Shown here in pieces: positions 24,821 through 49,576 of a DNA stretch of 64,000 bases. Position numbers and translations under genes: made by a program. Position 1 is the first letter of the stretch, and each line of letters starts with the position of its first letter. Below the pieces are notes generated by a model. The model was not told where the DNA came from and did no database searches. It saw only the letters and a program-made list of their open reading frames with translations. The DNA is taken from the NCBI GenBank assembly GCA_963735035.1, contig CAVTJJ010000004.1:1344001-1408000 (forward strand), in the 5' to 3' direction. This DNA comes from an uncultured candidate division Zixibacteria bacterium. GTDB lineage: Bacteria > Zixibacteria > MSB-5A5 > GN15 > FEB-12.

Positions 24821-24896
24821 GCGGGAGTAACTCAGTTGGTAGAGTCACAGCCTTCCAAGCTGTTGGTCGCGAGTTCGAGCCTCGTCTCCCGCTCCA
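24821..24896 (+). tRNA. tRNA-Gly (TCC)
   Basis: Acceptor gcgggag/ctcccgc, anticodon loop cttccaa, GTTCGA T-loop, encoded CCA. Confidence 0.96.
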
Positions 24897-27337: not shown

Positions 27338-27410
27338 GCCCAGATAGCTCAGTTGGTAGAGCACATCCTTGGTAAGGATGAGGTCACCAGTTCGATCCTG
27401 GTTCTGGGCT
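27338..27410 (+). tRNA. tRNA-Thr (GGT), CCA not encoded
   Basis: Acceptor gcccaga/tctgggc, anticodon arm catcc-ttggtaa-ggatg, GTTCGA. Confidence 0.96.
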
Positions 27411-28856: not shown

Positions 28857-28933
28857 AGGCCAGTAGCTCCAACGGTTAGAGCGCCGGTCTCCAAAACCGG
28901 ATGCTGGGGGTTCGAATCCCTCCTGGCCTGCCA
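28857..28933 (+). tRNA. tRNA-Trp (CCA)
   Basis: Acceptor aggccag/ctggcct, anticodon arm ccggt-ctccaaa-accgg, encoded CCA; canonical position before secE. Confidence 0.96.
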
Positions 28934-47511: not shown

Positions 47512-47802
47512 ATGCCGAGATCGCTGAAGAAGGGCCCGTACGTTGAGGCCTCGTTACAGAAGAGAATCGACAAGCTGCTGCAGTCCGACGACAAGAAAGT
47601 CGTCAAGACCTGGTCGCGGCGCTCCACGATTACGCCCGATTTCATCGGCCGGACTTTCGCGGTGCACAACGGTAACAAGTTCATCCCGATTTATGTCACT
47701 GAAAACATGGTCGGCCACAAGTTGGGTGAGTTCGCTCCGACCCGCACCTTCCGTGGACACAGCGGCAAACTGGTTGAGCGGACCACGCAGTTGAAAGGTT
47801 AA
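47512..47802 (+). CDS. rpsS: 30S ribosomal protein S19 (intact)
   Basis: [32 protein letters not shown]. Confidence 0.98.
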
Positions 47803-47808
47803 GAAGTA

Positions 47809-48615
47809 ATGGCGCAGAAAACCGAACAGCAGCGTATGCCCAAAGATCCTATCCTGGTCAAGATTCAGGAACAGGACAAGGCCGAACGTCGGAAAGTCAT
47901 CAGGACCAGGGCTCGGCATTCCCGTATTCGCAAGGAATTCGTCGGCCGCACTCTGGGCGTGTTCGACGGTCAGGGATACACCAGCGTGCATATCACGGAC
48001 GACATGGTCGGCCGTCGTATCGGCAAGGTAGCTCCGAAGCATATGCCCACCGCCCAGTCGCGATACCTGAGCATTCCCGCCCGTAAGATGCGGCGCGTGG
48101 CCGCTCTGGTGAAGGGGCTGCCGGTCGAAAAGGCTCTGAATATATTGAAATTCACGCCCAAAATTGCGGCTCATGAGATGGCCAAGACGCTATCCTCGGC
48201 GGTGTTCAACAAGCTGTCAATCGAGGGCACGGCGCATCTTGATGCGGAACATCTGATCCTGAGTAACATCGTGGTCAACGAAGCTCCGACCGCGAAGCGG
48301 ATTCGGAATCGCTCGATGGGTCGGGTCTATCGCATCCGCAAGCGGTATTGCCATCTCGCCATCTACCTGGATGTTGATGAGCGCAAAGAGGCGGCCACGG
48401 TTGCCGCGGCTGAAGTTAAGGGTGACAAGACCAAGACTCCGGCCAAGAAGACCGCAGGCAAGACCACGGTAAGAAGACCGGCTAAGAAGAAGACTACTAA
48501 GAAGACCGCTGCCAAGAAGAAGACGACCAAGAAAGTCGTCGCGAAGAAGACGGCGGCCAAAAAGTCTGGATCGGCCTCGACCGGTAAGGCCGCCAAGACT
48601 GAGAAGAAGAAATAG
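47809..48615 (+). CDS. rplV: 50S ribosomal protein L22 with N-terminal S19-like domain and Lys/Ala-rich tail
   Basis: L22 core from M79 (RYLSIPARKMRRVAALVKG...RSMGRVYRIRKRYCHL); residues 28-76 align without gaps to the S19 core. Confidence 0.93.
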   Translation: MAQKTEQQRMPKDPILVKIQEQDKAERRKVIRTRARHSRIRKEFVGRTLGVFDGQGYTSVHITDDMVGRRIGKVAPKHMPTAQSRYLSIPARKMRRVAALVKGLPVEKALNILKFTPKIAAHEMAKTLSSAVFNKLSIEGTAHLDAEHLILSNIVVNEAPTAKRIRNRSMGRVYRIRKRYCHLAIYLDVDERKEAATVAAAEVKGDKTKTPAKKTAGKTTVRRPAKKKTTKKTAAKKKTTKKVVAKKTAAKKSGSASTGKAAKTEKKK

Positions 48616-48637: not shown

Positions 48638-49576
48638 TTGGGACATAAGACACACCCAATAGGTTTCCGCGTCGGGATTAACAGGCCCTGGAACAGTCGC
48701 TGGTTCGCTTCCGATCGCAATTTTGCGGACCTCGTCCATGAAGATATCATGGTCAAGCGTTATATCGCCAAGCGGTTGGACAACGCCGGTATTTCCAAGG
48801 TCGTGATTTCTCGGGCACCCAAGAGAGTTACCGTCGATATTCACACCGCTCGTCCGGGTATCGTTATCGGTCGGCGGGGCGCCGAGGTGGACAAGCTGCG
48901 CGAAGAGCTGCAGATGTTGACCAAGAAGGCGATCCTCCTGAATATCGTCGAGGTGCGCAAACCGGAACTGAGCTCTCAATTGGTGGCCGATTCGATCGCC
49001 CGTCAGCTTGAAGGTCGTATGTCGTTCCGTCGCGCCATGAAGAAGGCGCTGGCGGCCACGATGAAGATGGGTGCGCAGGGCATTAAGATTCAGTGTGGTG
49101 GACGTCTGGGCGGCGCCGAAATAGCGCGCACCGAAAAGTATATGGATGGACGCGTACCGCTTCACACTCTGCGGGCCGATATCGACTACGCCACGTCGAC
49201 CGGTCACACCACTTATGGAACGATCGGCGTGAAAGTCTGGATCTGCCTGGGTGACATCATGGGCAAGGGCTTGTACCAGCGCGAAGAAGATGAAAAGAAG
49301 AAGGCTGAAGAACCGGAAACCTCGGCCGCTCAGGCCGCTCGGTCACGTCGGGATCGTCCCGGTGGACCGTCGCGGGGTGACAAGGGTGGACCGCCGCGTG
49401 GGCGGGTGAGACGTCCGGGTGCCGGGCCGAGAGGCGCCGCGCCTCGGGGCCGTCGCCCTGAAGATGAAGCGTCAGGTGGACGGCGTCCGGCTTCGCACGA
49501 GAGAACCCCTGAAGCGGCTGGTGGTCAAACCCAGTCAAAACCGGGCGAAGGCTCGGGCGGTGAATCGAAGGCGTAA
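48638..49576 (+). CDS. rpsC: 30S ribosomal protein S3 with long Arg/Gly/Pro-rich tail
   Basis: MGHKTHPIGFR, RPGIVIG, GRVPLHTLRADIDY. Confidence 0.97.
   Translation: MGHKTHPIGFRVGINRPWNSRWFASDRNFADLVHEDIMVKRYIAKRLDNAGISKVVISRAPKRVTVDIHTARPGIVIGRRGAEVDKLREELQMLTKKAILLNIVEVRKPELSSQLVADSIARQLEGRMSFRRAMKKALAATMKMGAQGIKIQCGGRLGGAEIARTEKYMDGRVPLHTLRADIDYATSTGHTTYGTIGVKVWICLGDIMGKGLYQREEDEKKKAEEPETSAAQAARSRRDRPGGPSRGDKGGPPRGRVRRPGAGPRGAAPRGRRPEDEASGGRRPASHERTPEAAGGQTQSKPGEGSGGESKA

Follow-up and report, generated by a model that had tools for sequence, protein, structure and literature searches.

A conserved fusion of a diverged uS19-like domain to ribosomal protein uL22 in a family of Zixibacteria

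Ribosomal proteins are held near one copy per genome. The uL22 gene of the window, by which we mean the whole 64,000-nucleotide stretch of Zixibacteria DNA analysed here, raised the question of whether a second, altered copy of the small-subunit protein uS19 has been joined to a large-subunit protein, and of what such a domain could do there. A first-pass annotation, made from the letters alone, had noticed that the rplV open reading frame, immediately after an intact rpsS, begins with 78 extra S19-like residues. As shown in Table 1, the fused gene occupies the place expected for the uL22 gene in the S10 operon, with rpsS before it and rpsC after it, and with a spacer of 6 nucleotides after the rpsS stop codon. 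The gene order of this str-S10 cluster is rpoC, rpsL, rpsG, fusA and tuf, followed by rplC, rplD, rplW, rplB, rpsS, rplV, rpsC and rplP. Rfam detected no ribosomal protein leader family upstream of the S10 cluster in the window, where the only matches at gathering score were three tRNA genes on the + strand (24821-24893, 27338-27410 and 28857-28930).

Table 1. Features of the window around the fused gene.
Feature	Position	Strand	Basis
rpsS (uS19, 96 aa), intact, separate	47512..47802	+	Pfam S19 123.6 bits; NCBIfam rpsS_bact 142.2 bits (cut-off 89.35)
GAAAGG Shine-Dalgarno-like hexamer, within the rpsS 3' end, 10 nt before ATG 47809	47793..47798	+	Sequence
Fused S19-like + uL22 ORF, 268 aa, ATG start	47809..48615	+	Pfam
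N-terminal uS19-like domain, residues 1-78	47809..48042	+	Pfam S19 match at residues 12-77 = 47842-48039
Junction, residues 79-81 (MPT)	48043..48051	+	ATG 48043 is no conserved start
uL22 core with its long beta-hairpin, residues 82-187	48052..48369	+	Pfam L22 96.2 bits
C-terminal helix (residues 191-208), then disordered Lys/Ala/Thr-rich tail (209-268)	48379..48612	+	DSSP, pLDDT
rpsC (uS3, 312 aa), next gene	48638..49576	+	Ordinary S10-operon order

Profile searches placed both Pfam Ribosomal_S19 (51.4 bits against a gathering cut-off of 27, E 1e-13) and Pfam Ribosomal_L22 (PF00237; 96.2 bits against a cut-off of 28) on this single ORF, which is the outcome that the first-pass annotation had anticipated for such a search. 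Residues 1-78 (hereafter the N-domain) scored 55.2 bits for Ribosomal_S19 (PF00203) when searched alone, and the whole window genome contained two S19 matches, the true rpsS and the fused ORF. An alignment without gaps to the genome's own S19, with 19 of 49 residues identical, had been counted by hand, and BLASTP of residues 1-78 returned a similar one, gap-free and with 20/59 identical and 41/59 positive residues (E 1e-15). A profile built from 16 N-domains matched S19 from Thermus thermophilus with an E value of 4.6e-24, positions 10-77 of the one corresponding to positions 10-77 of the other.

The predicted structure agreed with these matches. AlphaFold modelled the N-domain alone with a pLDDT of 77 and the full protein as a confident two-domain model, in which the pLDDT of the N-domain was 86-95 and ten-residue pLDDT means were 86-96 for residues 11-190, junction included, and 92-93 over residues 71-90, the junction region. 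When the N-domain was compared with the PDB by Foldseek, uS19 chains accounted for all of the 50 matches listed, with TMq values of 0.70-0.76 in 44 of them and 0.61-0.68 in the other 6, and with an rmsd mostly of 1.3-2.0 Å over 63-67 columns; the S19 chain of the RimM-S19 complex (3a1p_B) ranked third. The modelled fold thus matches that of solved uS19, a comparison that had been proposed at the outset.

Despite this fold, the fused ORF reached only 49.3 bits with the NCBIfam rpsS_bact equivalog (TIGR01050), below the cut-off that the adjoining true rpsS passed. In order to locate the differences, we compared by column 37 true S19 proteins of the Zixibacteria family with 81 N-domains. Invariant or nearly so in the 37 family S19 proteins were an N-terminal motif, HNG, GHKLGEF and a C-terminal TRTxRGH tail. 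In the N-domains the N-terminal PRSLKKGP motif was relaxed, W34 (mostly changed to R), S35, E73 and T77 were mostly replaced, and the C-terminal tail (S19 residues 80-96) was deleted, in agreement with the earlier observation that the Trp, the HKLGEF motif and both tails are altered. Four residues that are invariant in S19 had switched to another conserved residue, H52F (frequency 0.95), F57Y, H69R (0.72) and F74V (0.74), and K32, T33, R36, G46, T48, G54, M66, G68 and P76 of the core were kept. The N-domain is therefore a member of the S19 homology family with an S19 fold, but it is not a uS19 orthologue. It should no longer work as uS19, since another conserved set of residues now stands in place of those that define uS19, and the combination of a kept core with switched residues is what would be expected of a domain under constraint for a new task. 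The net charge of the N-domain was +10 in the window and +3 to +11 (median +7) across 64 family members, and the Lys/Arg-rich loop of S19 was kept or strengthened; in one fused Zixibacteria genus the domain was almost neutral (+1 to +2). The N-domain contained no Cys, and no CxxC was present in either the N-domain or true S19.

The remainder of the protein was that of an ordinary uL22. It passed the NCBIfam rplV_bact equivalog (TIGR01044) with 86.9 bits against a cut-off of 73.65, the best Foldseek matches of this part were uL22 chains (TMt 0.82-0.86, rmsd about 2 Å), and DSSP assigned the two strands of the long beta-hairpin to residues 149-169 and 172-189, followed by the C-terminal helix. 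The fused ORF was the sole L22 match in the window genome, and each of the five fused genomes checked (97-100% complete) had exactly one PF00237 match, so the fused gene must be the working uL22 in these genomes. Residues 209-268 had pLDDT values below 50, and an HC2 histone-H1-like match in this tail was weak (20.1 bits, below the cut-off of 40). The disordered segment is some 60 residues long, is dominated by Lys, Ala and Thr, and occupies positions 48433-48612 of the window. Similar tails were found on the unfused L22 proteins of relatives (180-220 aa), which indicates that the tail is older than the fusion. The NCBIfam model NF008917 (L22/unknown domain fusion protein) gave 56.6 bits against a cut-off of 526, with a match that extended no further than the L22 core and a portion of the tail.

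When 5.8 billion proteins were searched, both PF00203 and PF00237 were present in 69 of the 120 relatives listed, each a protein cluster; these two-domain relatives had 243-309 aa and identities down to 45%, and the named ones were called Zixibacteria L22. The other 51 relatives listed had L22 only. Within the phylum an S19 match was found in 263 of 285 genomes and two matches in 19, of which 17 all belonged to the window's own family. The other two genomes, G100 and G222, were ruled out as fusion carriers, their matches being gene fragments on separate contigs. We also searched residues 1-189 against the 108 genomes of the family and obtained a match in 95. A single continuous match across both domains was present in 17 of these, distributed over 10 genera. 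In 76 the match was confined to L22 and did not begin before query residue 53, and two (G038 and G083) gave only a weak S19-type match.

Loci were fetched from 16 fused and 20 unfused genomes, which together with the window gave 37. A separate true rpsS lay just upstream in all of the 16 fused loci fetched, 70-89% identical to that of the window (one was cut by the contig end). The recurrence of this architecture in 17/95 family genomes, always beside a true rpsS, bears out the first-pass view that the window does not hold an assembly duplication. A stop or indel before position 48043 had been named as evidence against a fusion; the frame was open across both domains in all 17 fused genomes, and fold and frame of the N-domain were kept at pairwise identities down to 31%. 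An open frame of about 297 aa in unfused genomes was rejected, because it came from reading through the rpsS stop codon and the ORFs are separate. No near-identical sequencing runs were found (best share of words, 0.13), and no RNA run was among those listed.

No stand-alone diverged S19 domain appeared among the best 150 matches of the all-protein search; P0184 was discarded as such a domain, since this fragment continues into an L22 that is frameshifted. Ten further proteins (P0138, P0143, P0147, P0171, P0173, P0181, P0185, P0202, P0271 and P0297) were rejected as relatives; their domains were partial and scored 60-130 bits for S19. These proteins with true S19 and L22 (P0138, P0143 and the others) look like read-through, deletion or chimeric calls. 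Four that were looked up, P0138, P0143, P0147 and P0202, were single-member clusters; P0202 contained frameshift-like filler and P0147 was without the first part of L22. In P0271 and P0297 one S19 was read into L22, P0297 being translated straight through the spacer, and these two, which are from one organism type, might be real. In another fused S19-like/L22 protein, P0125, the L22 core broke at profile position 73 and continued into a Usp-like segment (23.7 bits), and it is probably from a chimeric contig.

As to whether the two domains are made as one chain, the gene that follows rpsS had a GAAAGG-type motif before its start codon in nearly all of the 37 loci, whether fused or unfused, which indicates that the fused ORF uses the ordinary rplV start signals; the unfused rplV of relatives started with ATG and in one case with TTG. 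The first-pass annotation had pointed out that ATG 48043 is without a well-placed Shine-Dalgarno sequence, and this holds, with an AAGG lying 17 nucleotides upstream. It had also named a start at 48043 alone as evidence against the fusion, and a junction start proved not to be conserved. Of 64 family proteins, 8 had a Met near the junction. Among the 17 fused loci, those of the window and of its closest relative (L003) were the only two with an in-frame junction ATG, and three had no ATG, GTG or TTG within 20 codons before the L22 core. Separate initiation of uL22 therefore cannot be the general rule. We infer that initiation takes place at the normal rplV start and yields a single chain, with which later cleavage would be compatible.

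We then considered where the domain came from. In the S19-type tree the 17 Zixibacteria N-domains formed one clade (100/99) nested with S19 of the same family (90/79), which indicates one tandem duplication of the resident rpsS followed by fusion, as the first-pass annotation had surmised in calling the duplication an old one. Branching inside the N-domain clade followed the genome tree. The latter, an unrooted tree of 37 genomes from five concatenated neighbouring ribosomal proteins, contained one clade of eight fused genomes including that of the window (99); the other nine fused genomes grouped with five unfused ones, and a separate clade of 15 genomes was all unfused. An AU test rejected the fused genomes as one clade (p 0.031), which, given the single origin of the domain, implies at least one secondary loss and shows that the N-domain is dispensable in some backgrounds. 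The unfused rplV genes nested among fused lineages (L019-L021, L023 and L037) share an MA- or MS- start with the N-domains of the fused genomes that are their sisters, and rplV of the all-unfused clade begins with MLVKAT. The MA-/MS- starts are a weak hint of a secondary in-frame deletion.

Selection on the extra domain, suspected earlier from its preserved residue pattern, was visible in NG86 dN/dS values of 0.05-0.19 for the N-domain in nine comparable pairs, compared with 0.02-0.22 for the L22 core, 0-0.10 for true S19 and 0.02-0.08 for L2; with dS mostly at 0.8-1.7, near saturation in most pairs, these values are rough. The two least saturated pairs gave 0.047 and 0.109 for the N-domain. 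Both branch lengths and dN showed that the N-domain evolves several times faster than true S19. It thus evolves faster than true S19 and yet is clearly constrained by purifying selection.

The same architecture was met outside the family. The exhaustive protein search returned P0162 (191 aa) and its relatives P0269 and P0270, with an S19-like domain fused to L22, from a lineage with the gene order rplB, true rpsS, the S19-like and L22 gene, and rpsC (locus L057). At L057:865-1440 the L22 joined to the S19-like domain is very diverged and the protein ends in a DEEEE tail. The S3 protein of this second lineage was 49% identical to that of the window and had its best named matches in Armatimonadetes MAGs (61-65%), and by these matches the lineage is assigned outside Zixibacteria. 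Like the Zixibacteria fusion, that of the second lineage is without the N-terminal motif, Trp34, GHKLGEF and the S19 C-terminal tail, and its junction lies in almost the same place. Unlike the Zixibacteria fusion, it has an acidic domain (-3 to -4) and an acidic tail. In the best tree the second-lineage domains stood beside that lineage's own S19 (96/79), which implies an independent duplication and fusion; an AU test did not reject a single origin of the domains of both lineages (p 0.21). The second fusion is thus probably independent in origin.

These results can be brought together as follows. The fused gene is the single, functional rplV of the organism, and its product bears a neofunctionalised uS19 copy at the N-terminus. 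The resident rpsS was duplicated in tandem once, in an ancestor within this Zixibacteria family, and the duplicate lost its C-terminal tail and stop codon and was joined, in frame, to uL22 at its first strand. The fusion has since been inherited vertically under purifying selection, and lost again in at least one sublineage. As the sole L22 would be translated in one chain with the N-domain, every 50S subunit should carry an S19-fold domain, which would lie on the solvent side, close to the tunnel exit and adjacent to the globular part of uL22. The link between the N-domain and the first uL22 strand is about 3 residues, so the domain should sit beside the uL22 body on the 50S subunit. True uS19 sits on the 30S head beside uS13, and from ribosome geometry we take it that a domain tied about 3 residues from uL22 cannot reach its own 30S head.

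With regard to function, lineage-specific extensions of ribosomal proteins elsewhere stabilise or help to assemble rRNA regions. The N-domain might in the same manner be an extra clamp on the existing rRNA surface around uL22, stabilising that region or helping in its assembly. This role is favoured because the domain is basic in the 64 family members and keeps the Lys/Arg-rich loop of S19, and we judge the chances of its being right and wrong to be evenly balanced. According to sections of PMC5071890, uL22, uL23, uL24 and uL29 surround the tunnel exit, and in chloroplasts uL22 accommodates large additions to its ends on the solvent side. The first-pass annotation had listed binding of extra rRNA among its options, for which we obtained no support. 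Full-length 23S rRNA genes (2982-3026 nt, one fused copy being cut at the contig end) were compared between five fused and six unfused genomes, three further unfused genomes having no 23S match and falling outside the comparison, and no insertion accompanied the fusion, since no indel of 2 nt or more separated the groups; no dedicated RNA partner is therefore visible. A single 23S substitution separated them, at position 409 of L058 (G000), with C in the five fused and A or T in the six unfused genomes, and it may reflect phylogeny. The near-neutral genus and the acidic second lineage indicate that a general role as RNA clamp cannot hold for all carriers. A complex prediction with the uL22 core (79-208) and the N-domain (1-78), both with alignment A1 and run without controls, gave a score of 0.00 against a mark of 0.32 and does not alter these odds.

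The main rival is that the N-domain does not bind rRNA and is instead a protein-docking platform at the tunnel exit, which would contact a neighbouring ribosome, or recruit or position a factor specific to the lineage, be it one for nascent chains, targeting, the membrane or hibernation. The absence of an rRNA insertion and the acidic or near-neutral domains of some carriers speak for such a platform, the conserved switched residues F52, Y57, R69 and V74 suggest a new specific surface, and sections of PMC5071890 describe the exit rim formed by uL22, uL23, uL24 and uL29 as a docking site for biogenesis factors. Most carriers, however, have a strongly basic domain that retains the basic loop of S19, which fits RNA at least as well, and we consider docking rather unlikely as the domain's role. 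The domain could also have retained a partnership of the S19 type, with uS13, RimM or 16S-like RNA, and serve as a decoy or bridge that couples assembly of the 30S head, or a neighbouring 30S subunit, to the 50S subunit. Retention of the S19 fold and of the nine core residues listed above, as well as the high rank of the RimM-bound S19 chain, would agree with this. Against it, nearly universal signatures are gone or replaced (the N-terminal motif, W34, H52, H69-K70, E73-F74 and the C-terminal tail), the rpsS equivalog cut-off is failed, and the short tether to uL22 keeps the domain from its own 30S head by the geometry assumed above. The changed signature residues thus make S13, RimM and 16S rRNA less likely partners, and the retention of such a partnership as a whole appears quite improbable.

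That the N-domain has no function at all, and is a decaying duplicate tolerated as a passenger that extends an essential protein, is improbable as well. Its rate of change relative to true S19, the loss of S19 motifs and its renewed deletion in at least one sublineage are what a passenger would display, but the dN/dS values lie within the range of the L22 core, the open frame and the fold persist at the lowest pairwise identities, the domain has conserved residues of its own, and a similar architecture is retained in the second lineage. It is hardly credible that the fusion results from an error of assembly or gene calling, or that the window makes two products with uL22 alone initiated at ATG 48043 and the preceding part either untranslated or produced on its own. 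Singleton proteins with true S19 and L22 that resemble read-through, frameshift or chimeric products do exist (P0138, P0143, P0147, P0202, P0271 and P0297), and the window does have an ATG at the junction. The diverged form, however, occurs in 17 genomes and in 69 of the 120 clusters listed, from many sources and with an open frame throughout, selection acts on it at the protein level, and two products are opposed by the rarity of a junction Met, by the three fused loci that are without a start codon there, and by the missing Shine-Dalgarno sequence before 48043.

The clamp on rRNA near uL22 is thus the reading that we prefer. A bolder one, which we regard as possible but doubtful, is that the S19 fold was recruited onto the large subunit, perhaps twice independently, and made a new functional site by uL22 at the tunnel exit. 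If so, this site could dock a lineage-specific factor for nascent chains, membrane targeting or hibernation, or make a ribosome-ribosome contact, and the Zixibacteria and near-Armatimonadota lineages would carry a structurally specialised 50S subunit.

No published account of a fusion between S19 and L22, or of a diverged paralogue of S19, was found in a literature search, in line with the earlier remark that no such fusion was known. The main text of PMC3353972 contains none of the words 'fusion', 'fused', 'S19' and 'L22'; File S3 of that paper could list S19 paralogues. According to that main text, all the highly diverged bacterial ribosomal protein paralogues found carry Zn-binding motifs (Yutin et al., 2012; PMC3353972). 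The fusion resembles the C+/C- pairs of Zn-ribbon ribosomal proteins in that a ribosomal protein gene was duplicated and one copy diverged; it differs from them in that the N-domain is Cys-free, is no alternative component of its subunit and is fused to a different protein. With bacterial uS19 (PF00203, TIGR01050) the N-domain, which derives from the family's own rpsS, shares homology over S19 positions of about 10-77 and the same alpha/beta fold, and it differs from uS19 by falling below the equivalog cut-off, by its replaced signatures and deleted tail, and by being joined to a large-subunit protein, a normal rpsS being kept beside the fused gene. Chloroplast uL22c is nearly doubled in size by N- and C-terminal extensions and, like the fused protein, consists of a normal core with solvent-side additions, as far as sections of PMC5071890 describe it. 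Here, unlike in uL22c and NF008917, what has been added at the N-terminus is a folded domain whose origin can be identified, a ribosomal protein of the other subunit. Extensions and paralogues of ribosomal proteins are thus already known, and what appears to be new is a conserved graft of a domain across subunits, from S19 onto uL22.

In this family a core 30S protein was duplicated in place, refashioned, joined to a core 50S protein and kept under selection, which would be a clear natural example of a ribosome that builds an additional surface module out of components it already had. This may have happened twice. For structural studies of how ribosomes differ among uncultured phyla, the fusion is a well-defined target. 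S19 is used as a marker in phylogenies and in estimates of contamination. The fused gene is annotated simply as 'L22' and carrier genomes give two matches to the S19 marker model, and they could therefore disturb marker-gene phylogenies and contamination estimates that count S19. In the gene that follows the fusion, uS3 of the window starts with TTG and is extended at its C-terminus by some 90 residues, among which Arg, Gly, Pro and Glu are abundant; the stop-to-stop frames of S3 in relatives comprise about 300-344 codons, and long S3 tails seem to be a trait of the family.
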